Positions 4,519 through 61,870 are shown, numbered from the stretch's first letter. The stretch: 64,000 nt of DNA from Dehalococcoidia bacterium (GCA_965262595.1 OZ253548.1:1634228-1698227); one strand, 5' to 3'. Notes: a model not told the origin generated them from the letters alone. Made by a program: numbers and translations.

Positions 4519-5712
4519 ATGTTGAGTGGCGCGTTAGGCGGCGTCAAGGTGCTGGATTTGAGCGAAGACATCGCCGGCTCATTTTGCGCCCGCCTGTTGG
4601 CCGACTACGGAGCGGAAGTGCTGAAGCTGGAACCGCCCGGCGGGGCTGCCCTGCGCCGGATGGGGCCTTTCTTTCAGGACGACCCCCACCCGGAAAAGAG
4701 TCTTTTCTTTCTGGTTTTAAATCTTAACAAGAAAGGCGCTACCCTGAACTTGCAGACCGAAACCGGTCAGGCTCTATTAAAACGGTTGGTGCCCCACGTG
4801 GATGTTATCGTGGAGAGCTACCGGCCCGGCTACTTGGCCTCCCTGGGTTTGGGCCATCAAGATTTGCAGGCCCTCAACCCGGCCCTGACCATGACCTCGG
4901 TGACTCCCTTTGGGCAGGAGGGGCCGTACAGCCAATACCGCGGGGAAGAAATCGTAAATTACGCGATGGGTATGATAATGAGCATCAGCGGGGTACAGGG
5001 CCGGGAACCGCTGAAGCACGGCGGGTTTCAGGCGCAATACGAGGGGGGGTTATTTGCGGCGGCGGCCACTTCCATTGCCCTGTTTGCCCAGGAGTATAGC
5101 GGGGCCGGGGAGCACGTTGACGTTTCTATCACCGAGTGCGTGGCCTCTACGATGATGGCAACCCAGACTATTTACCCATTTATGGGCGGAACGCAGACCC
5201 GCCGGCGGGCCAGCGGCAGTATGTTCGGTAACCCGATGCCCTGCCAGGACGGCTGGATAATCGTCCAGACCGGCGGCGGCGCGTCGTGGGAAGACCTGGC
5301 CGAGTTCTTCCAGTGCCCGGAGATGCTGGAGGAGCGTTTTGCCAACCGGGCGCAGCGGGCCGAAAACGGCGAGGAGCTGGACCGGATTGTAGTTGACTCA
5401 ATCAGGGAGCGCGACAAATGGGAGCTTTTCCCCAAAGCCGCCGAAGCCCGAATGCTCTTCGGCCTGGTGCAGACTCCATCGGAACTGGCCCAGTGCCCTC
5501 AATTGGAATCCCGCGACTTTTATCGGGAGATCGAGCATCCGGTTATCGGGAAGATACGGGTGCCCGCCGAGCTGTTCAAACTGAGCGAAACCCCCTACCA
5601 ACTGACCAACCCGGCCCCCACCCTGGGCCAGCACAACCGGGAAATCTACGTTGACGGCCTGGAGTACGACACGCAGCAGTTTACGCAGTTGCGGCAGTTG
5701 GGGGTGATTTAA
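4519..5712 (+). CDS. Family III CoA-transferase (CaiB/BaiF type)
   Basis: N-terminal VKVLDLSEDIAGSFCARLLADYGAEVLKLEPPGG and the later ESYRPG motif are characteristic of the family. Confidence 0.85.
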   Translation: MLSGALGGVKVLDLSEDIAGSFCARLLADYGAEVLKLEPPGGAALRRMGPFFQDDPHPEKSLFFLVLNLNKKGATLNLQTETGQALLKRLVPHVDVIVESYRPGYLASLGLGHQDLQALNPALTMTSVTPFGQEGPYSQYRGEEIVNYAMGMIMSISGVQGREPLKHGGFQAQYEGGLFAAAATSIALFAQEYSGAGEHVDVSITECVASTMMATQTIYPFMGGTQTRRRASGSMFGNPMPCQDGWIIVQTGGGASWEDLAEFFQCPEMLEERFANRAQRAENGEELDRIVVDSIRERDKWELFPKAAEARMLFGLVQTPSELAQCPQLESRDFYREIEHPVIGKIRVPAELFKLSETPYQLTNPAPTLGQHNREIYVDGLEYDTQQFTQLRQLGVI

Positions 5713-5742
5713 CTTCCGCACTTTTTATATGGAGATGTGTTT

Positions 5743-6237
5743 ATGGAACGCGGGAACGATGCACCGGAAACGTCTGCCGACGCCCAGGACAGTAATTCCA
5801 GAAGGCCCGGTATTGGCGACCGGTTGCGTGAAACTGTCAGAGCCACAGGGGAAGGGATAACTGGCACTGCCGATACCATTACTGGGGTACAGTTCCGTAG
5901 GCAGTTTGAGGATTTTACGGATGCCGTTACTACGACGGTTGTTGGCGTACACCGGGACCAAGAGAAATTACAGGAAAGAACCGACAAGCTGGAATCAGAA
6001 ACTATCGAAGTCCAGCGAACCCAGGGGGAATTGCGGGAGAGGGTGGATAGGCTGGAATCAACCGAAAAATCCCTTGATACCGCTCCACTGGTAGCGAATT
6101 TGCAGGGGCGGCTGGAGATGTTGGAGACGTCAAAAACATCCGGTAAAACCGGCACATCGCCTCTGGTAATTGTCTTTGGTGTAGTAGCAACGCTGGCGTT
6201 GGCGCTGGGCATTATCGCCGTACTGAGAACATTCTGA
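5743..6237 (+). CDS. Hypothetical coiled-coil protein with a C-terminal transmembrane anchor
   Basis: The track ORF starts at GTG 5737. ATG 5743 has GGAGA 7 nt upstream. The middle is heptad-like and charged (EKLQERTDKLESETIEVQRTQGELRERVDRLES). A hydrophobic tail follows (PLVIVFGVVATLALALGIIAVL). The stop overlaps the next start (TGATG). Confidence 0.55.
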   Translation: MERGNDAPETSADAQDSNSRRPGIGDRLRETVRATGEGITGTADTITGVQFRRQFEDFTDAVTTTVVGVHRDQEKLQERTDKLESETIEVQRTQGELRERVDRLESTEKSLDTAPLVANLQGRLEMLETSKTSGKTGTSPLVIVFGVVATLALALGIIAVLRTF

Positions 6238-52450: not shown

Positions 52451-54985
52451 TTACGTCGAGTAAACCCCTTCCAGGCCAACCATAGTTTCGGGAAACTCAT
52501 TCGCGTTGAACACCAGGCGGAAGGTGCCTTTTACCGGCCCGTCCTTGATGGTCATACTTCCGGCGTTAAAGGCGTTTTGCAGTATTTCCAATACCTTCTG
52601 TTTATATTCCGTATCTGAGTAGCCCCGCAGATGTTCCCCTTTAGTTTCAAAGACTAACACATGAGGCTGGACGCCATTTCGTCCTGCCATTGCTACGAAA
52701 TCGGGCCAGATGCGTTCCTGCCGCCAGCCCCGCAGATAATAGTCGCCCCGCTGCCGGACGGCCACCCGGTGCCACCATTTCAACGCCTTCTGTTCGTCCA
52801 GGTACAAAGCGAAGTTGCGTTCCAGGTCGCTGTCAAACTCCCGGTCAAATACCGGTTCAAAGAGGCTTAACTGTAGCTGTTGCCCGTACTTGGTCAGGGG
52901 CGCATCCAGGCGGCGAATATCAATCTCGTAAGATTCCTTCATACGGAAGTTGGGGCGGCCGGCCTGTAAGTCGAAGGAAAGTTCGTTATTCTTGAGTTTA
53001 GCCTGGAAAGCCTGCTGCGCCTGCAAATCAAGAGAAGTGACAACTCCGTCTCGAAGTCGCCAGGCGATGTAGGAACGCCGGTCGTGAATGTCTGCGTCGC
53101 TGCTGCCCGACTGCCGCCACCGATTAACCATTTCCTGGGCCAGCCGTGTAGCCTGCCAGGGATTTGGGACGACGTCGGAAATCCGGCGGGCGAACCAGGA
53201 GATTAAAAGCGTCTTGTCGATAAACAGTTCCTGGTCGGCGTGAAAGATTGTGGGGGTTTCGCCAACATCAACGGTTGCCGTTTGCAGCCGGGCGCGGTCG
53301 GGCATCGTTTCCTGCTGTTCCGGCACTTTCAAGGCGGCCCAATCAATGGCCGGGAGGATGTGTCGTTGGTAATCCAACTCAGTCCATTTCCCGCCGTCCT
53401 GGTGCAGCACCTTCGGCAGGAAGATATTTTCGCCCCGGAACTTCTCGCGCCGGTTTACTGTAATCCGCTCCCAATCGCCCCCTTGTGTGATTACCTCTCC
53501 GCTTAACCCGGTCAAGCCTTCCGATTCCAGACCCTGCTGAACTTGGGTTACCGCCTGACCGACGCCGGTGTTCCAGCAATGGACGTAGCACTGGTCCAGC
53601 CGCGCAACGCCGGTGCGCTGGGCGTAGGGTTGGCGCAGAACCCGCCCGACCAACTGGGTTATGGCGCGCTGGGCGGTGGTGTTGTCCAGCATTACCAACA
53701 GGTAGGCGAAAGAGCAGTCCCAGCCCTCCATCAAGGCGGCCCTGGTTATAATCCAACGCACTTGGGAGAGTTCGGAAAGCAGGTCAAGGCCCGATAACTC
53801 ATCCATTTCGGACGATTTGACCGCCACAGCCTCGGCAGGAACCCCCAGGTTGTTAACCAGGTATTCTCTCACATGCTCAGCATGAACCCGCTCCCCATCC
53901 CGCTGGTCAGCGCCGGTTCGCTCCACCCGAACCACGGCAATGGGCCGGATGTAACGGCCCCCGTTATGCTGCAACGCTTGGGCATCCGCCGCCAACCGTT
54001 CCAGCTCATCGTGGGCTTGGGCCAGGGTGTGCTGCCATTCCGTATTAGTGAAGGAACTGACCTGCACCGGCAGCTTAATCATTTCCTCGGTCTTGAGTTC
54101 GACGCCGGTAATGTCCACCAACAGGTTGCTGATGCCGCCGTTGGGCGTGGCGGATAGTTCAATTACCAGGCTGGGGTCGAGGCGGTTGACGGAACGGACA
54201 AATTCCTGATTGACGCCGGCGGTTTTGGACCCGTAGGCTTTATGGGCTTCGTCCAGCACTACCACCGGGCGGAGCATCTTGAACAGGTTAAAAAGGCTGT
54301 GTCTTACCGGCCCATCGTCCGCAGTCCGTTCCAGGTCCGGGTGTTGTTCCAGCAGCCGGCCATCGCCCAGCAGGTCGTCGCCGTCGGGAAAAAAGGTGGG
54401 ATACCGCCCGGAATCGCGGAACATCCGCAGAAAGTCCCGGCCCTTTTGCCGGTTGGCCGCCGGCAGCATTAACAGCATTACGCACAGGTAGCTGGCAACA
54501 TCGCCGGAGGTGAATTGGTCGTCCTTTTCCAGCAGCTTGAACGTACCGTCTCTGTCTGGTTCCAGCATTTCCCGGTAGGGGTGTTCCCGGTTGCGCAAGG
54601 CCGCTTTGGTCTGTTCATAAATGGCCCGGGTGGGGGTTATCCACAGAACCAACCCGGTCTGCCGGTTCAGCCTTTTCAGGGCGGCGGCGGCCAGCAGCGT
54701 CTTGCCCCCGCCGGTGGGCACCTTGAAACAGACGTGGGCGATGGGCCGCACGGCATCGTCGGTTCGGCTGACGTACTCCCCGGCGTTTTGGGCCACGCCG
54801 CCGGCTTCCTTCAACCGCTGCCAGGCCGTTTTCGGGAAGTTGCGAATATCGTCGGGAACTTCCATACCGACGCCCTGCAACGCCGCTATACCCGTCTCCG
54901 ACTGCTGGCGGGCCTGTTCCAGTGCCTCAAGCCAGCGGGAGAAGGCGTTAAGCGTAGTTTCCTGGTAGTCCTTCAGTTCGAACAT
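52451..54985 (-). CDS. res: Type III restriction endonuclease, Res subunit (SF2 helicase plus C-terminal nuclease)
   Basis: Walker A VPTGGGKTLLAA, DEAH box VVLDEAHKAY, later helicase motifs, and a C-terminal PD-(D/E)xK-like segment WPDFVAM...LVFETKGEHL. Confidence 0.9.
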   Translation of the reverse strand: MFELKDYQETTLNAFSRWLEALEQARQQSETGIAALQGVGMEVPDDIRNFPKTAWQRLKEAGGVAQNAGEYVSRTDDAVRPIAHVCFKVPTGGGKTLLAAAALKRLNRQTGLVLWITPTRAIYEQTKAALRNREHPYREMLEPDRDGTFKLLEKDDQFTSGDVASYLCVMLLMLPAANRQKGRDFLRMFRDSGRYPTFFPDGDDLLGDGRLLEQHPDLERTADDGPVRHSLFNLFKMLRPVVVLDEAHKAYGSKTAGVNQEFVRSVNRLDPSLVIELSATPNGGISNLLVDITGVELKTEEMIKLPVQVSSFTNTEWQHTLAQAHDELERLAADAQALQHNGGRYIRPIAVVRVERTGADQRDGERVHAEHVREYLVNNLGVPAEAVAVKSSEMDELSGLDLLSELSQVRWIITRAALMEGWDCSFAYLLVMLDNTTAQRAITQLVGRVLRQPYAQRTGVARLDQCYVHCWNTGVGQAVTQVQQGLESEGLTGLSGEVITQGGDWERITVNRREKFRGENIFLPKVLHQDGGKWTELDYQRHILPAIDWAALKVPEQQETMPDRARLQTATVDVGETPTIFHADQELFIDKTLLISWFARRISDVVPNPWQATRLAQEMVNRWRQSGSSDADIHDRRSYIAWRLRDGVVTSLDLQAQQAFQAKLKNNELSFDLQAGRPNFRMKESYEIDIRRLDAPLTKYGQQLQLSLFEPVFDREFDSDLERNFALYLDEQKALKWWHRVAVRQRGDYYLRGWRQERIWPDFVAMAGRNGVQPHVLVFETKGEHLRGYSDTEYKQKVLEILQNAFNAGSMTIKDGPVKGTFRLVFNANEFPETMVGLEGVYST

Positions 54986-54996
54986 TCTGTTTCCCG

Positions 54997-55209
54997 TCAG
55001 AGAGTGGCGCAGAACTGTGCCACGGTGAGGCCGGAAGAGCGAATCAGACTGCGCAAGGTTCCTTTTGCTACTGTTGAGTGATCCGGCACGGATAGCGTGG
55101 TTATTTCTCCGGGCTTGGTCATAATTATATGGCTGCTCCGCTGCCGAGCTACATTCCGGCCAAAGCGCTCAAAGTTGCGCACCACTTGCAACCCGCTCAG
55201 TACCGGCAA
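54997..55209 (-). CDS. hicA: HicA-family mRNA-interferase toxin
   Basis: LQVVRNFERFGRNVARQRSSHIIM...VPDHSTVAKGTLRSLIRSSGLTVAQF matches the HicA/YcfA pattern. TTG start 8 nt after the hicB stop. Confidence 0.8.
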   Translation of the reverse strand: MPVLSGLQVVRNFERFGRNVARQRSSHIIMTKPGEITTLSVPDHSTVAKGTLRSLIRSSGLTVAQFCATL

Positions 55210-55217
55210 TGGCGGTA

Positions 55218-55424
55218 TCAGAGCGTGACTTCCACTTGTTGCGTTTCGATGGTCAACGGCAACCCCTGTTCGGCCCTTACTTCCAAGCAGAGGGCGATGG
55301 CCTCCCGGATGTTGGCGATGGCTTCATTCTTGCTTTCCCCTTGGCTGGCACAGCCCGGAATAGCCGGGCATTCGACAACCCAGACGCCATCTTCGTCCCG
55401 GTCTATGGTAACGGTTATCCTCAT
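55218..55424 (-). CDS. hicB: HicB-family antitoxin (short form, no DNA-binding domain)
   Basis: MRITVTIDRDEDGVWVVECPAIPGCASQGESKNEAIANIREAIALCLE is the HicB/UPF0150 N-terminal fold. At 68 aa it has no RHH/HTH extension. Confidence 0.8.
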   Translation of the reverse strand: MRITVTIDRDEDGVWVVECPAIPGCASQGESKNEAIANIREAIALCLEVRAEQGLPLTIETQQVEVTL

Positions 55425-55446
55425 CAGTAATCCTGCCTTATCCCCT

Positions 55447-57069
55447 TCAGATGCGCTGGTGGATTTGGTAGGGCAGTTGGCAAAAGGTTATGCCAAAGCC
55501 GGATAGCTCCCGTTGACCGATGTATTTGCCCGGGGCAAAGACCACCGCCTTTCGCCCTTCCGCTTGGTTGCGTTGGGCGATGCGCTCGGCCCGCTCGGCG
55601 TTGAACATCGCAGCGTGGCTGCCCAGCCATTCCAGGTCGGGCCGGTACAGCAGGTAATAGTCCTGCTCGCCGTTACGGTAAAAGAGGCCGTCATCATCCC
55701 GGGCTGCCAGGTCATCGGCCCCGGCGGAGATGCCGGAGGAAGTATGCAACACGTAGGCAGCCAAGGCCGTGTATTCCGGCAAATGCTCCCCGGTCAGCAA
55801 CCCTTCGGTGTCGATAGGTTCGCCCAAAGTGCAGTAGCTAAAAGAACCGCCCAATCCTTCCTTCAAGGAGGCATCCCGCGCATTCGGTACGCCGTTGATT
55901 ACCCGCCGCACCCGCTCGGCAGTTATGGTGTCGGCGTAGTCCTCACACTCCACCAGGATAAACTTGCGGTTGCCGCCGTCTTCTTTATTCAGGGCAAGGA
56001 CAGCGTGGGCGGTTGTGCCGGACCCGGCGAAGGAATCCAGAACTATCGCATTCGGACTCCGCAGAATCTCCATGAGAAACTTGAGCAACTTTGTTGGCTT
56101 AGGCTGTGAAAAAACTCCGCCTTCTCCAAATATCTCCCGTAGTTGCCGTGTACCTTCAGAATTGAAACCCGCTATCTCTGGCGCAATTATGGCGTCAGGA
56201 GGTTGACCTTCTTGTACTTCGTTCAAGAATCGCTTAGCTCTCGGTTCGTTCACAGAAAAGTCAAGGCGATTGTCGGCCTCCATTTCCCGCAACCGTTCCT
56301 TTGAATAGCTAGGGTATCTACCGCTAGGAGCAGTCCACTCGACACCATTTGCAAACGTAATGGTGTAAGGCTCGTAGTAATTCCGAGCGTGGATTGGATC
56401 AAATTTATACCTACCACGTCCATCATTATCATCGTGGGGATAGTTGCTTGACTTATCTGTGACATACCGAATATATCTTTCTCTGTCCTCTCCAAACCAA
56501 GATTTATCCTTGGCGTAAGCTAAGACATAATCAGCATTTAGGTTAAAATCCTTGCTAGAATTTCGGACCGTGTGCATAGCGCGCCGGGTAAGAACAGCGA
56601 AAAAGTTCTCTTCCCCAAACACCTCATCCATCAGCATCCGCAAGTGGTGCTGTTCGTTGTCGTCAATGGACACGAAAATAACCCCGTCGTCGGCCAGTAG
56701 TTCTTTGAGCAACTGCAAGCGGGGCCACATCATGCACAGCCACTTGTCGTGGCGTTCCAGGTCCTCCCCGTCCACCGGGCTTTGCTCTTTGAGCCACGCC
56801 TTCATTAAGGGGCTGTTCACCTTGTCGTTGTAAACCCAGCCTTCGTTGCCGGTGTTGTAGGGTGGGTCAATGTAGATGCACTTGACCTTGCCGGCGTAGC
56901 GGGGGAGCAGGGCTTTCAGGGCGTGGAGGTTGTCGCCGTGGATGATCAGGTTGTCATCGGCCCCGGCCGGGTTCAGGGACTTGTCGGCATCGGGAACCAG
57001 CGGTCGGTAGGGCACGGTAAGGTGATGGGCGTAGATAAACTGTTTGCCCTTGAAATCCAGCGTGGGCAT
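55447..57069 (-). CDS. mod: Type III R-M DNA methyltransferase, Mod subunit (beta-class N6A/N4C)
   Basis: Motif IV CIYIDPPYNTGNEGW is followed by a variable region, then motif I VLDSFAGSGTTAHA. ATG 57069 has AAGGAG 5 nt upstream (the track starts at GTG 57075). Confidence 0.9.
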   Translation of the reverse strand: MPTLDFKGKQFIYAHHLTVPYRPLVPDADKSLNPAGADDNLIIHGDNLHALKALLPRYAGKVKCIYIDPPYNTGNEGWVYNDKVNSPLMKAWLKEQSPVDGEDLERHDKWLCMMWPRLQLLKELLADDGVIFVSIDDNEQHHLRMLMDEVFGEENFFAVLTRRAMHTVRNSSKDFNLNADYVLAYAKDKSWFGEDRERYIRYVTDKSSNYPHDDNDGRGRYKFDPIHARNYYEPYTITFANGVEWTAPSGRYPSYSKERLREMEADNRLDFSVNEPRAKRFLNEVQEGQPPDAIIAPEIAGFNSEGTRQLREIFGEGGVFSQPKPTKLLKFLMEILRSPNAIVLDSFAGSGTTAHAVLALNKEDGGNRKFILVECEDYADTITAERVRRVINGVPNARDASLKEGLGGSFSYCTLGEPIDTEGLLTGEHLPEYTALAAYVLHTSSGISAGADDLAARDDDGLFYRNGEQDYYLLYRPDLEWLGSHAAMFNAERAERIAQRNQAEGRKAVVFAPGKYIGQRELSGFGITFCQLPYQIHQRI

Positions 57070-57219: not shown

Positions 57220-57420
57220 TTACCGCTTCTCAAACTGTAAGTCCGACAAGTCCAAGTTCGAGGAGCGTTTGGAAAGGTAGAGCATCTCCACGCCCACGAC
57301 TTCCTTGGCCTCGTTGTAGTCCAGGATTACGCCGGGCGATACCTCTTCCGTTTGGACGATCGAAGAGTCGTCGAGACGCAGGTAGAGGGCGTCGGCTGAT
57401 TTATCTATGGTCAGTTTCAT
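57220..57420 (-). CDS. DUF2283-domain protein (solitary)
   Basis: ATG 57420 (GGGGAG upstream). MKLTIDKSADALYLRLDDSSIVQTEEVSPGVILDYNEAKEVVGVEML. Confidence 0.7.
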   Translation of the reverse strand: MKLTIDKSADALYLRLDDSSIVQTEEVSPGVILDYNEAKEVVGVEMLYLSKRSSNLDLSDLQFEKR

Positions 57421-57439
57421 AATCTCCCCCAATTCTACC

Positions 57440-58237
57440 CTACGCAAACCACCCCTTTACCAGCTCAATGAACCGCTCCGGGTGTTCCACCTCCGGGCGA
57501 TGGCCGCAGTTGTCGAAGATTTCCAGGCGGGAGTTGGGGATGGAGTCATGGTAGAGCTGTCCGGCGCTCAGGGGGACGATAGGGTCTTCCCGCCCCCACA
57601 CGATCATCGTCGGCAGCCGCTTCAGCCGCGGCAGCAGGTTGGGCAGCGCCGGGTAGTGCATATAGGGCCGCCAACTCAGTCGGCAGGCGCCCTCCCGCGA
57701 CGACTCCCAATTTTCGATTTGTTCCGGCGTCGGCTCGTCGGGGCAGATTTGCTGGTACTCAGCCACCGCTGAAGGGTCCAGCAGGCTGCCGGTGATGTAG
57801 GCCTTGGCCACCACCTGGAAAATATCAAAGATTTCGCCGGTGGGAGGCCGGACTCCGGCGGCGGCGACCAGCGCCAGCTTCTTGAACTGCTGCGGGCACA
57901 TAACCGCCATTTCCGCGGCCAGCCATCCGCCCAGGGAAAAACCCATCACGTCGACGCCTTCCAAGCCCAGGTCATCCAGGGCCCCCAGGTACCAGAAGGC
58001 GAGATCGTGCAGATTCATGACCCAATCCAGCTCCGCAGACTCGCCAAAGCCCGGATGCCAGGGGATATACAGCGTGCGGTTCTGGGCCAGGGCTTCGTGA
58101 TAGCGCAACCAACCGGGATGCCCCATCTCGTCGTGCAGAATCAACAGCGGCTCGCCGGAACCGCCCTTGACCAGCCTAATCTCGCTGCCGGCCACCTCTA
58201 CCACTTCTTCGGTCCAGGTTACGGAACTGGTGGTCAT
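57440..58237 (-). CDS. Alpha/beta hydrolase (meta-cleavage-product-hydrolase-like)
   Basis: ATG 58237 (GAAGGAG upstream). Nucleophile elbow GFSLGG, C-terminal NCGHRPEVEHPE. Confidence 0.85.
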   Translation of the reverse strand: MTTSSVTWTEEVVEVAGSEIRLVKGGSGEPLLILHDEMGHPGWLRYHEALAQNRTLYIPWHPGFGESAELDWVMNLHDLAFWYLGALDDLGLEGVDVMGFSLGGWLAAEMAVMCPQQFKKLALVAAAGVRPPTGEIFDIFQVVAKAYITGSLLDPSAVAEYQQICPDEPTPEQIENWESSREGACRLSWRPYMHYPALPNLLPRLKRLPTMIVWGREDPIVPLSAGQLYHDSIPNSRLEIFDNCGHRPEVEHPERFIELVKGWFA

Positions 58238-58307: not shown

Positions 58308-58336
58308 ATTGTCAGAGAGGGAGCGTTGGTTGTCAA
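58308..58336 (-). promoter_or_regulatory. Putative sigma-70-type promoter of the hydrolase gene, inside the 3' end of gene C
   Basis: On the minus strand: TTGACA (58336-58331), a 17-nt spacer, then GACAAT (58313-58308). Confidence 0.3.
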
Positions 58337-59118
58337 GGTTGGGGGGTGGAGCGGGGGGCCGCTGTAGGGTTGCGCCAGCGATTGAACTCGGGGGGAAGGA
58401 TTTCCATAAGCTGCTTGGCGGTCATTCCGTAAACGTCGTAGGTCATATATAGTTGGTTCAGAACAGCGAGCAGGCGGACGACTCCACCAGGCGGGCGTTG
58501 ATTCTGACCGCCGGCCAGGACGCCCGACTTCAATTGGCGAGTATGAGGGTCGGCGTAGAGACGGTGGGCCAGGTCCACGATTCCCACCGATCGAAACATC
58601 TCGGGCGCGCCGGCCAGCCGGTCAGCAAGGTGCCCCATGGAGTTTACTGGCTCATCCAGCAGGTACCACGCCGTTTCGCCGTGCCGTGCATAAACCTCCC
58701 ACGACAACATTAGCCGGTGGGCGAAGTAGCGGCGGCTGCCCCTCCCCGTTTCTTCCGGGTCGATGACATAAGCCACGTCGGGGTTGCTGCCCAAGCGGGG
58801 GTTGCCCTGTTGATCCGAGTTTATTACTTCCGTGAAATAGAACATTCCCAACCAGGACCATAGGCCGGCGTTATCGACGATTCTTGCCAGACCTAGCAGG
58901 GCCAATTGTTGGCTCAGGTACTCACCGGCTTCCCGGCGGTTGGTGAAGGGCCGCCGCTGCACGTAAACCGCCGGGGTGATGGGCTGGGCGTAGGGCGATT
59001 CATCCAATATCAAATAAGGGAATGGCGGGTTTTCATCGGCCCGCAACGCCGCTAGATACTCCCTGGCTTGGCGGATTCCCTCCTGGGTCAACTCGGCGAC
59101 GCGGTGGGGTTGTTCCAT
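58333..59118 (-). CDS. Hypothetical protein, gene C of the GHKL operon
   Basis: ATG 59118 overlaps the gene B stop (TGATG). 261 aa with no recognisable motif. Confidence 0.65.
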   Translation of the reverse strand: MEQPHRVAELTQEGIRQAREYLAALRADENPPFPYLILDESPYAQPITPAVYVQRRPFTNRREAGEYLSQQLALLGLARIVDNAGLWSWLGMFYFTEVINSDQQGNPRLGSNPDVAYVIDPEETGRGSRRYFAHRLMLSWEVYARHGETAWYLLDEPVNSMGHLADRLAGAPEMFRSVGIVDLAHRLYADPHTRQLKSGVLAGGQNQRPPGGVVRLLAVLNQLYMTYDVYGMTAKQLMEILPPEFNRWRNPTAAPRSTPQP

Positions 59119-59888
59119 CAGTTCCTCCGGGAGGCGACGAACCTGTCGCTGGCTGGGAAGCGTTCCCGAGTGAATGCGGCGACTGCGTCTTCGATCCAAT
59201 TGGACACCGCTTCCCGGTCTCGATTGCCGTCTCCGTCAACTTCCGGGTAACCATCGCTGAAAAAGCCGCTGACAAACCCCATCCACCGGCCCCAGGAAGT
59301 CTGGTTGTCCGGCTCGGTAGGGTCTATATCTTCGACTAGCAAGGCTCGGCTGAGAATGGACCGTAACACCTCCGGCACCAGGGGCGCCAGAAAGGTGTCG
59401 TTCCGGCTGGCCAAGTTGCTGATTTCCGGGATGTTCCGGTTGACTTGCAAGGTTGGATTTGATCCGTCGCTGTCGGGAAAATCGAGTCGCCAAACCTCCT
59501 GGCCCAAGTCCTTTTCTTCCAGCCAGACCAACGACTCCCGCCGGTTGGCGCGGGTGGGGTGAATCCGGTCGGCCAGAGCCAACAGCTTGCCGGAACCGTC
59601 CGGGGCCAGCGCCGTCAACCGAAAGTGTGGATTGACCGGGACATCCACCAACCGGCGGTCCTCCGGCGGGGTCGGCGCACCAACAGTTCCCCAAGGGAAG
59701 CGCATGGCGGTGCGGTCACGCTGGGCGATAATAACTAAGGGGGCCTCGGATGGCAGGTCCACCTCCGACAAGTCCAATTCGGCAGTGAAGGTTGGCGGGC
59801 CGCCGTTTTGCGGTTCCTGCAACTCAATGGATACCCGCTGAAGTTCGATACGGTGGCGTCCGGTGTAATTAAACCTGCGTACCGGCAT
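59118..59888 (-). CDS. Hypothetical protein, gene B of the GHKL operon
   Basis: ATG 59888 lies 20 nt inside the end of gene A. 256 aa with no recognisable motif. Confidence 0.65.
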   Translation of the reverse strand: MPVRRFNYTGRHRIELQRVSIELQEPQNGGPPTFTAELDLSEVDLPSEAPLVIIAQRDRTAMRFPWGTVGAPTPPEDRRLVDVPVNPHFRLTALAPDGSGKLLALADRIHPTRANRRESLVWLEEKDLGQEVWRLDFPDSDGSNPTLQVNRNIPEISNLASRNDTFLAPLVPEVLRSILSRALLVEDIDPTEPDNQTSWGRWMGFVSGFFSDGYPEVDGDGNRDREAVSNWIEDAVAAFTRERFPASDRFVASRRN

Positions 59889-61870
59889 CGTCTCCCTCTA
59901 CATTGTCCGCTACCGCCTCCACCCGCACGTGAAGGTCGCGCAGCGGGTCAAAGTCGGTCACTGTGAACTCAAACTCATCCGGGTTGTCGATTTCAAGGAA
60001 TACTTCGTTGCCCTCGCGGCCCGGCCTGACCTGACAGCCGCCAAAATGGATAGTTAGGGTATCTCCCCGTCCGTGCAAGCGGAAATCCTCGGGACGATAG
60101 CTTTTCAAGGGGTTGCCTCGGGGAACTGCATAGGCCACTTGTAACTGGGCGCGGGCGGGCGGCTCTTCCACTCCGTTGGCCAAAGTGACCCGAAAACCGG
60201 AGTTGATTTGCGAAACAGCAAAGTCGCGGCGGCGGCGCAATGGAGGGTCAATCCGCTTCTTGTTGTAAATCAGTGACCTCTCCCTCGCTCGGCCTGGGTC
60301 CGGGGGTGCGGTCTCTTCGACGTCCCAAAAGAAAATATCGGAAAATACGTCCTTCTGTAAGCTCTCTTGCGGTGTTTCCAGAATGGACAACATTGTGGCT
60401 GGAGCGTGTCTGACGTCATCTATCCGGCGGCGGGGCGCGACCCAGCGGTCCTGAACCCGGCGGGTTTGTGGTCGCCAGGAAGTGTGGGCTGCCGGCTCGG
60501 AATCACGCAACATGGCCGCCAGCGGGTCTCGTTCATCCACTCTCAGTAATGCCCAAGACCGGTACCGGCTGATGTGGTCCATGTCGGAAATAGACAACGT
60601 GCCTCTCACGTAGTAATCATGCCCGTGGGGTAGCGAGTCATCTCGTTGTAAATACAGCCAAAACTCGGTGGGTTTCCGGGCTTCTTTCTTGCGTTGCGCG
60701 TACCCGCCGATGCGGAAGGCCAGTAATTCCCCGGAGTTGTAGCGGTCCCGCAAGCCAACCACTGTAGCATGGTCGGCGCCGGTAGGGTCATTGCTCGGTA
60801 ATTCGGCCAAGGTAGTATGAGCAGCGTCGGGCATGGCAATGCACTTCCGGCACATTTCAAACAGCTTGGCATAGCTCTGTTCGCTAAGTTCTCCGGCTTC
60901 CTGCAGGTCCAGGCTTTTGACGACGTTATCGATGGTGTTTGCGGTCAGTTCCACGGGCGACGAGCCGTCGCCCTTATCAACGATTATTTCCAACCGGCCG
61001 TCAATTATCGGGTAGAAGTAGTTGCGGACTATGGCAGCCAACAAGCCGGAAGCGCTGATGTTTTCCTCGTCTTCGGCATTGATTCGGGGAAAGGGGATAA
61101 TTACAGACAGACCGGGTTCACCGCGGAGCCGGAGACCAAAGTCGGCAATGCACCGCTCAACGAACGTCCGTTGGTCGGGGTCAGACATTACCAAAGGTAA
61201 TTGCAGTCCGTTATCCCCGGCAACGCCCAAGAAACCGTAGGGCTCGTATCGCTCGTCTCCAATGGTGTGCTTGGTGAGTATAGACTGCCCCATTAGCAGA
61301 GTTTCGTCATCCAAACTGCGCTTGGTAACGGCGATGTAGGCGCTGACCCGCGAAACGTCAGGGAAAACCCACTTGCCCAATCCCCACGACCCGTTGTCCG
61401 ATTCTCCCTTGGGAACGTCCGATGTTGCGGAAAAACCAGAAGAAATGATTTTCATTCCCGGTTTGTCGGTCGGAGTCGTTGTATTGCAGCCAATCTCCGT
61501 TTAGTCCCTTTGTACCGGCGTCCTCAATTACCAGAAAGGGAACACCACCCTCGGCCAGGTTGTTGTTCAAGACTCGCTCAGCAATATCATCGTCCAGATG
61601 CTCGGGGTTGATACGCTCCAGATGCTCGATAAGTCCGGACAAGTAAGGCGCCGCTCTTTCTGATGGTAAAGGAGAATGTATTCCAGCCAGTGAAAAGCGC
61701 ATCCTGATAGGGTCTCGCCTGGACCTATCTACGTCGGCGTCCAAAGAGTTTTGGATGGACTCTCGGGCCAACCTGGTGTTGATGCCTTCGTTGCCGAATA
61801 ACTCCCGCTCCATGGGGTCAAAGTTCATCTCGCCGGGGGCCATAGCGCGAAACCGCCAACGTATTTCCAT
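59869..61870 (-). CDS. GHKL (Bergerat-fold) ATPase-domain protein, gene A; reading frame interrupted once (ORFs 61870->61358 and 61455->59869)
   Basis: The N box ESIQNSLDA and G1 box VIEDAGTKGL are in the first ORF. The G2 box GSWGLGKWVF is in the second. The two ORFs overlap by 98 nt. The remaining ~500 aa are unassigned. Confidence 0.7.

Follow-up and report, generated by a model that had tools for sequence, protein, structure and literature searches.

HicA is a ribosome-independent mRNA interferase that is neutralised by HicB through direct binding. Among the toxins encoded within restriction-modification (R-M) operons, PrrC is a single ABC-ATPase/HEPN protein that is kept latent by the Type I enzyme itself and triggered by the phage Stp peptide (PMC3710099, PMC12707154). 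A guilt-by-embedding survey of defence operons covers Hma, BREX, DISARM, and Type I R-M, and the Type III mod-res pair is not among the systems treated in the portion of that survey drawn on here (bioRxiv 10.1101/2024.01.29.577857). As for chromosomal toxin-antitoxin modules, toxin-first pseudogenisation is the common route of their decay (Belot et al. 2026, PMC13617665). Here we describe a Type III R-M operon whose mod and res genes flank a hicB-hicA pair, in a stretch of 64,000 nucleotides (nt) from a Dehalococcoidia bacterium (GCA_965262595.1 OZ253548.1:1634228-1698227), which is referred to as the window. With moderate confidence, the pair is interpreted as an eroding selfish hicBA cassette, a hitchhiker in the Type III operon and not a functional subunit or regulator of restriction, because the toxin gene decays in the window lineage while the antitoxin gene stays intact.

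In the proposed scenario, a Dehalococcoidia-like bacterium would have acquired a promoter-less, antitoxin-first hicB-hicA cassette by recombination, which placed a discrete unit of 439 nt in the mod-res spacer (roughly 20 nt long) of its chromosomal Type III R-M operon. The cassette would be transcribed by read-through from whatever promoter drives mod, and hicB would be translated from the ribosome-binding site that once served res; in intact relatives, hicA would be translated via the stop/start overlap with hicB. Such cassettes (HicBA, MazEF, and PIN/VapC) would move between related R-M loci, probably through recombination at the 3' end of mod and the 5' end of res, both of which are conserved. 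The window lineage would then be a recent recipient in which the toxin is already being lost with the antitoxin intact, as in the usual toxin-first erosion of an addiction module.

Residues 8-61 of the window HicA match positions 3-58 of the 58-position profile PF07927 (46.5 bits), and relatives are detectable among solved structures by sequence search. The hicA of every relative encodes 73 amino acids, and its start codon, ATG or GTG, overlaps the stop codon of hicB (TAATG, TGATG, or TAGTG). At the ancestral start, the window reads ATA (55218-55216), and the only in-frame start left is a TTG (55209-55207) that corresponds to ancestral codon 4 and has no ribosome-binding site of its own. In addition, the window hicA carries W21R (at 55158). 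Among the 71 metagenome sequences, position 21 is Trp in 67 and never Arg. Every other R-M-linked copy has Trp there, as does each free-standing copy whose frame is undisrupted up to that residue, and two solved HicA structures have an aromatic residue at this position.

In the window lineage, none of the five haplotypes has an undamaged hicA: each carries a start-loss, nonsense, or frameshift lesion (Table 1). Within the lineage, five disruptive or nonsynonymous changes against four synonymous ones were counted in hicA, compared with none against one in hicB, and the HicB protein is 100% identical in the five haplotypes. Across other loci, both hicB and hicA are under strong purifying selection, with ratios of nonsynonymous to synonymous substitution rates (dN/dS) of 0.03–0.21 (0.03–0.17 for hicB), so the hicBA family appears functional in general. 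From these sequences, we infer that HicA activity is lost or strongly reduced in this genome. The original prediction had proposed that the pair could give the R-M module a second addiction or abortive layer. No such layer appears to be working here, with a hicA that has lost its ATG and acquired W21R, lesions in all five haplotypes, and an invariant HicB. The coupling of Res translation to toxin-antitoxin status that was also suggested is not supported, and the observations can be accounted for without it.

Several observations point the other way. The hicA frame of the window is still open and retains RSSHII, and the His of this catalytic motif is invariant in 71/71 metagenome relatives; a Ser at the Gly position preceding the SH is found in nine of the 71. 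The TTG lies 8 nt after the hicB stop codon and could support termination-reinitiation. Initiation at AUA in E. coli reaches roughly 1–2% of that at AUG (bioRxiv 10.1101/063800), so residual hicA expression is possible in the ATA-only state, and low-level toxin synthesis from the TTG or by weak initiation at the ATA may occur. The same ATG-to-ATA change is present in an independent free-standing lineage (L171, L173) and is the sole lesion in L169; this recurrence could reflect selection for a lower toxin dose and not loss. The presence of three toxin-antitoxin types at one 20-nt spacer, described below, could likewise indicate a benefit of pairing with restriction and not merely a permissive site. 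These observations, apart from the last, would fit an attenuated but functional module, in which the ATA/TTG start and R21 tune HicA down for a constitutive read-through that HicB cannot repress, and the pair stabilises the R-M locus by post-segregational killing. However, this possibility is considered unlikely: the sister haplotypes with clear nulls (Q26stop and the frameshift) are better explained by selection on the toxin that is relaxed or negative than by tuning, W21R alters a residue that is strongly conserved in relatives, and the count of disruptive versus synonymous changes within the lineage is 5:4 for hicA and 0:1 for hicB.

The ATG/ATA (55216) and W21/R21 (55158) states, which are 58 nt apart, occur in all four combinations among the five haplotypes, a pattern that implies either recombination or repeated mutation inside hicA.

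The antitoxin is of the short form, 68 amino acids in length, and has no DNA-binding domain, as was predicted: its profile match, to the partially RNase H-like N-terminal domain, covers positions 3–60 of the 123 in PF15919 and stops short of the C-terminal RHH/HTH domain, which most studied HicB proteins use for autoregulation although not all have it. Its relatives in the PDB include E. coli HicB (6g1c/6g1n; phmmer, E = 2e-5) and the short Thermus thermophilus proteins 2yzt and 1wv8. A protein search returned 7295 HicB homologues, and among the matches listed nearly all are 68 amino acids long. The short HicB was considered as an adaptation to life in an operon, an idea that was dropped since the 68-amino-acid form is standard in free-standing cassettes. 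It had also been argued that a short antitoxin fits expression from the mod promoter. Because the whole family looks alike, and mostly stands free with its own upstream region, the short form gives no specific support to that idea.

The invariance of HicB in a lineage whose hicA decays raises the alternative that HicB is the retained part of the cassette, which would either neutralise a paralogous HicA elsewhere in the genome as an anti-addiction factor or set the level of Res through its translation from the old res site. The junctions at which hicB persists without hicA (L007, L032) are in line with this idea, as is the occurrence of free-standing hicBA copies (HicB 84% identical) in other assemblies with sample accessions close to that of the window. 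On the other hand, neutral decay of a toxin-antitoxin module is likewise expected to leave an antitoxin that outlasts its toxin, and in a cassette as young as this one an intact hicB may simply have lacked the time to decay. A retained role for HicB is therefore regarded as very unlikely.

Open reading frame (ORF) calling in the window agreed with the predicted layout: on the minus strand, mod is followed by hicB after 22 nt, hicB by hicA after 8 nt, and hicA by res after 11 nt (Table 1). The 8-nt gap between hicB and hicA holds only if the TTG is taken as the hicA start; in the source assembly, the gene caller annotated hicB and not hicA. The two R-M genes retain their order and strand, but 465 nt with two additional ORFs separate them in the window. 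All four gene identities were confirmed by profile searches: hicB and hicA both exceed the Pfam cut-off of 27 bits (HicB_lk_antitox, 42.8 bits; HicA_toxin, 46.5 bits), mod and res match N6_N4_Mtase (109 bits) and ResIII (50 bits), and PADLOC assigned Mod to MTase_III (563 bits) and Res to REase_III (585 bits, full-length, residues 3–826). Separate promoters or terminators between the four genes were considered and dropped, since a consensus scan, limited to sigma-70-type promoters, found no sigma-70-like promoter and no intrinsic-terminator-like site at any of the three minus-strand junctions; in the same scan, terminator-like matches were overall fewer than the shuffled expectation. Co-transcription of the four genes, as originally proposed, is likely, because the gaps leave no room for promoters or terminators, no such signals were predicted there, and hicB uses the ribosome-binding site that stands before res in sister genomes without the insert. 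The gene identities, the gaps, and the absence of junction signals together show that the reported arrangement was correctly observed.

Table 1. Positions of the operon features in the window and hicA states of the five haplotypes of the window lineage.
Feature	Position	Strand	Description
mod	55447-57069	minus	Type III DNA methyltransferase, 540 amino acids from ATG at 57069
mod-hicB spacer, 22 nt	55425-55446	minus	carries the former res ribosome-binding site AAGGGGATAAGGCAGG
hicBA cassette as a unit, 439 nt	54986-55424	minus	insert with sharp identity edges
hicB	55218-55424	minus	short antitoxin, 68 amino acids, HicB N-terminal domain only
hicA	54997-55218	minus	lesioned toxin gene; 54997-55209 encodes 70 amino acids from the TTG start
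hicA-res spacer, 11 nt	54986-54996	minus	CGGGAAACAGA, new and weaker ribosome-binding context for res
res	52451-54985	minus	Type III restriction endonuclease/helicase, 844 amino acids
haplotype window			hicA: ATA and W21R
haplotype L082/L168			hicA: ATA, R14C, and W21R
haplotype L169			hicA: ATA only
haplotype L083/L167			hicA: ATG kept; W21R and Q26stop
haplotype L166			hicA: ATG and W kept; 1-nt deletion at codon 33

The point of insertion can be read from the closest relatives that have no insert (L002, L084, and L085), in which the junction reads "…TGA/TAA AGGGGATAAGGC(A/C)GG… ATG(res)". The same AAGGGGATAAGGCAGG that precedes the hicB ATG in the window stands directly before the res ATG in these relatives. 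Owing to this shared context, the cassette can be placed exactly in the normal mod-res spacer, with hicB inheriting the ribosome-binding site of res. The res gene of the window is left with a new 11-nt junction, which is the same in L003, L082, and L083. Both L084 and L002 have the chromosomal neighbours of the window and lack the cassette, with mod and res cleanly adjacent. Since the flanking genes of L084 (an α/β-hydrolase and an LLM-class oxidoreductase) differ from those of the window at a synonymous divergence (dS) of only 0.12–0.16, very close relatives are polymorphic for the cassette, and the window lineage most likely gained it recently. The cassette ends were inspected by eye for target-site duplications and inverted repeats, and none were evident besides duplicated mod 3' ends (L038, L033).

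The divergence of the cassette is discordant with that of its flanks. Between the window and L003, DNA identity is 95% in hicB and 92% in hicA, compared with about 80% in the mod 3' end and in res. The cassette block as a whole is 90–98% identical, with a sharp fall to about 80% at the mod stop codon and at the res ATG. Correspondingly, dS is 0.20 for hicB and 0.25 for hicA, compared with 1.10 for res, which makes the cassette much younger than the genes on either side. Simple vertical inheritance of the cassette with the operon is ruled out by these values (0.20–0.25 against 1.10), by the sharp edges, and by the absence of the cassette in L084. At two loci, remnants of a mod 3' end adjoin the cassette: a 21-codon remnant (…GITFCQLPYEMH…) follows hicA immediately in L038 (5050-5112), and a similar remnant (…GITFCQLPYEMH…) immediately precedes hicB in L033 (3366-3431). 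This suggests that the cassette travels with pieces of the flanking gene. The discordant divergence, the sharp boundaries, and the mod 3'-end remnants are all consistent with related R-M loci exchanging the cassette through recombination of their conserved flanks, which is taken here as the probable mode of transfer.

The mod-res junction was then compared across the Type III family by mapping Mod, HicB, HicA, and Res onto 80 species-representative loci whose Res is 63–91% identical to that of the window. Synteny of mod-hicBA-res, which the original prediction proposed to look for in other genomes, was found: hicB or hicBA is present at or beside the junction in about nine loci (L003, L007, L014, L015, L016, L032, L033, L036, and L038), and mod and res are adjacent in 59. 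Five loci have both hicB and hicA between mod and res (L003, L015, L016, L036, and L038), and two have hicB alone, with hicA lost by internal deletion (L007 and L032). In L014, insertion sequence (IS) elements separate hicBA from res, and in L033 hicBA lies just upstream of mod. Other modules occupy the same position elsewhere, with MazE and PemK/MazF at the junction of L031, overlapping the res start, and a PIN-domain toxin at the junctions of L021 and L043. In this Type III family, a toxin-antitoxin module occupies the spacer of about 20 nt in roughly one of every seven species-level loci. As HicB(A), MazEF, and PIN modules are all found there, the mod-res spacer is a slot that toxin-antitoxin modules occupy recurrently.

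Loci with hicBA do not cluster in the Res tree but are spread across it, and at least two junction architectures exist. In the first (window and L003), hicB starts 22 nt past the mod stop codon and uses the ribosome-binding site of res; in the second (L036, L007, and L014), hicB is preceded by a leader of about 67 nt and has a GGAGG of its own. The GGCAGGTAT site is retained by res in L036, L007, L014, and L015.

Further genes were seen at some of these junctions. In L015 (1169-1552) and L038 (5211-5657), hicBA is accompanied at the junction by an ORF of 127–148 amino acids, for which no Pfam match was found; membrane segments are predicted in it, and its tail is a charged coiled coil. L014 carries a SocA/Panacea-domain antitoxin gene and a 129-amino-acid partner immediately upstream of res (4836-5792, minus strand), together with hicBA and IS21-like genes, so that several putative toxin-antitoxin modules are piled at one R-M locus. 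A more distant metagenome Type III locus, L092 (MKWU01001641.1, 3824-6917; Res 48% identical), has three genes between mod and a frameshifted res, namely a VapB-like gene, a PIN toxin gene, and a gene for a 637-amino-acid HicB-domain::TPR fusion. The HicB domain forms the first 68 residues of this protein and is followed by TPR repeats and an uncharacterised C-terminal region.

Relatives of the cassette also occur outside R-M operons. A scan of metagenome contigs with the HicB alignment gave at least 543 confirmed relatives from at least 600 matches, of which 80 loci were kept. In 74 of these 80, hicA follows hicB directly; mod and res are nearby in one and absent in the other 79, many of the contigs being short. 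Other ENA assemblies, with sample accession numbers close to that of the window, contain free-standing hicBA copies in which HicB is 84% identical to that of the window. These copies (L170-L189) have about 270–300 nt of upstream sequence and lie at a variable spot between acyl-CoA dehydrogenase genes. In eight of the 20, hicA is damaged, including the ATG-to-ATA change in L171 and L173 mentioned above. At this spot, DpnI, Vsr/HNH/Dcm, or PLD-nuclease genes were seen as neighbours swapping in and out.

In a first tree, the eight R-M-linked cassettes all grouped in a single clade to the exclusion of 60 metagenome cassettes. When the free-standing ENA copies were added, the bootstrap value was 0/100 for an R-M-only clade and 80/100 for a mixed clade. 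An R-M-specialised hicBA lineage was consequently dropped as an explanation, as the free-standing ENA copies nest inside the R-M clade. Because the copies falling within it come from assemblies of close accession, the clade reflects a local gene pool.

The recurrence of such modules at the junction bears on another alternative, a restriction-coupled backup comparable to a PrrC-like guard or an abortive infection system. HicA would be freed upon phage transcription shut-off or a block of the Type III enzyme, and the two layers would be co-regulated and co-transferred. The location of the cassette physically inside the R-M operon agrees with this proposal, as do the recurrence of three toxin families in the same spacer across the Res tree, the two or more junction architectures that imply independent insertions, and the intact copies at other loci, where both genes are constrained by purifying selection. 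Precedents also exist in PrrC of EcoprrI and in the defence genes reported in the embedding literature as lying within Type I R-M, BREX, DISARM, and Hma systems. However, the toxin is not maintained at the site, since every hicA haplotype of the window lineage is damaged and hicA is deleted in L007 and L032; 59 of the 80 loci have no insert at all; and the embedded cassettes form no specialised lineage, free-standing copies nesting among them (0/100 vs 80/100). In addition, no analysis made here pointed to an interaction of HicAB with Mod or Res. A guard function at this locus is thus judged quite improbable.

A more far-reaching proposal is that the junction serves as a dedicated exchangeable slot, at which R-M alleles would exchange modules (HicBA, MazEF, VapC, and small membrane proteins) by recombination at the mod 3' and res 5' ends, which are conserved. 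The intact modules would act as a restriction-coupled second defence that fires upon transcription shut-off or anti-restriction, and the recurrent ATG-to-ATA change would be a selected dose-setting for a toxin that lacks transcriptional autoregulation. We regard this proposal as speculative and improbable, and retain the interpretation of an eroding, hitchhiking cassette.

The R-M genes that surround the cassette have the expected features. In Mod, the motifs DPPY (YIDPPYNTG) and FxGxG (DSFAGSGTT) were seen in the translation, and the ATG at 57069 fits the N-terminus MPTLDFKGK of the homologues, with a GTG 6 nt upstream. Identity to L003 is about 80–88% in the 3' part of mod but only about 37% in its centre, upstream of about 56036, which encodes the target-recognition part. 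The mod interior (about 56036-56750, minus strand) has a GC content of 47–48% against about 58–60% around it, and there the match to L003 declines to about 37% identity, from about 85%; by these sequence features, the GC dip and the identity drop are a probable signature of a swapped Mod target-recognition domain. In Res, the Walker A (PTGGGKT), DEAH (LDEAHKAY), and C-terminal PD...ExK (WPDF...FETKGEH) motifs are invariant in 27 homologues. A Res protein identical to that of the window is encoded on a 346-kb contig of an ENA metagenome assembly. The relatives of Res come overwhelmingly from metagenome-assembled genomes labelled Dehalococcoidia or Chloroflexota, together with Latescibacterota, Poribacteria, and others. 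Judging by their names, many of these genomes are putatively sponge-associated. In some relatives, the R-M operon itself is degraded, with res split in L166 (1939-3207) and mod split in L085 (1336-2983), and IS or transposase genes occur in or beside mod in L014, L057, and L070.

Other genes adjoin the operon in the window. A lone DUF2283 gene is located just upstream of mod (57220-57447, minus strand), and at the same place L082 has a DUF4258 and DUF2283 pair, which is presumed to be toxin-antitoxin-like, the DUF4258 match being weak. The DUF2283 gene of the window resembles an antitoxin gene that has lost its partner, and would be the second such orphan next to the operon. Further upstream, three co-directional and partly overlapping ORFs (58333-61845, minus strand; 261, 256, and about 658 amino acids) adjoin the R-M operon. 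No Pfam or NCBIfam match was found for them, and PADLOC gave only a marginal match to PDC-M33A on the largest (E = 0.0098, 12.6 bits). The corresponding place in L084 has an ABC-transporter gene instead, which marks a variable region, and the three ORFs are possible uncharacterised defence genes.

The significance of the locus lies in the family-wide pattern of a 20-nt slot, cassette exchange, and rapid toxin loss, which is of interest for the evolution of toxin-antitoxin modules and defence islands. The theme of embedded toxins, represented by PrrC and by the cassettes of Type I R-M, BREX, DISARM, and Hma systems, is extended to Type III R-M. The discord in divergence, the sharp identity edges, and the mod 3'-end remnants indicate how such cassettes probably move, and the window lineage provides a clean natural case of rapid toxin-first erosion after acquisition. 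The locus is also a warning for annotation, since a tidy-looking toxin-antitoxin pair can be non-functional, as with this hicA, which has lost its start codon and went unannotated by the gene caller. No new mechanism is revealed on the present evidence. Non-exhaustive full-text literature searches found no report of a toxin-antitoxin cassette in a Type III mod-res junction; they returned only the general idea of embedding and cases from Type I R-M, BREX, DISARM, and Hma.

Compared with the studied HicAB systems (E. coli, 6g26/6g1n; Yersinia pestis HicA3B3, 4p78; Burkholderia pseudomallei HicA, 4c26), the pair is similar in its Pfam matches and the His of the (G/S)SH motif, and in intact relatives the two genes are likewise coupled by a stop/start overlap. 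Its HicB consists of the 68-amino-acid N-terminal domain only, like the T. thermophilus proteins 2yzt and 1wv8 and unlike HicB of E. coli or Y. pestis. The window cassette further differs from the studied systems in being antitoxin-first, in having no upstream region of its own, and in its hicA, which has no ATG and carries W21R. Canonical Type III operons of the EcoP1I/EcoP15I type share with this locus the order of mod followed by res, a Mod with DPPY and FxGxG motifs, and a Res with a superfamily 2 (SF2) helicase and a PD-(D/E)xK nuclease. In annotated Res relatives (Alicyclobacillus pAACI02 and a Chryseobacterium oryzae plasmid), mod and res are separated by a 5-nt gap or overlap by 1 nt, and neither of these two inspected plasmids has an insert between them. 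Unlike in the canonical operons, the native ribosome-binding site of res is taken by hicB in the window.

PrrC in the EcoprrI Type Ic locus and the HEPN/Abi genes of R-M operons (PMC3710099, PMC12707154) resemble the present case in that an RNA-targeting toxin gene lies inside an R-M operon, and is co-transferred and probably co-transcribed with the restriction genes. The present locus differs from PrrC in having a protein antitoxin of its own, a Type III host system, and a decaying toxin. With the cases described in the part of the guilt-by-embedding survey considered here (bioRxiv 10.1101/2024.01.29.577857), it shares the recurrent and patchy insertion of diverse small cassettes between defence-operon genes; unlike them, it has one slot of about 20 nt and cassettes with mod 3'-end remnants. 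The erosion of chromosomal toxin-antitoxin modules (Belot et al. 2026, PMC13617665) is similar in the apparent recombination of flanks, the loss of the toxin first, and the patchy distribution among close relatives. However, the permissive site here is inside a defence operon and not a variable spot between core genes, although the same hicBA family also holds such a variable spot, between the acyl-CoA dehydrogenase genes. Taken as a whole, the parts are ordinary members of the HicA, HicB, and Type III R-M families, and their arrangement is a new instance of a known phenomenon.

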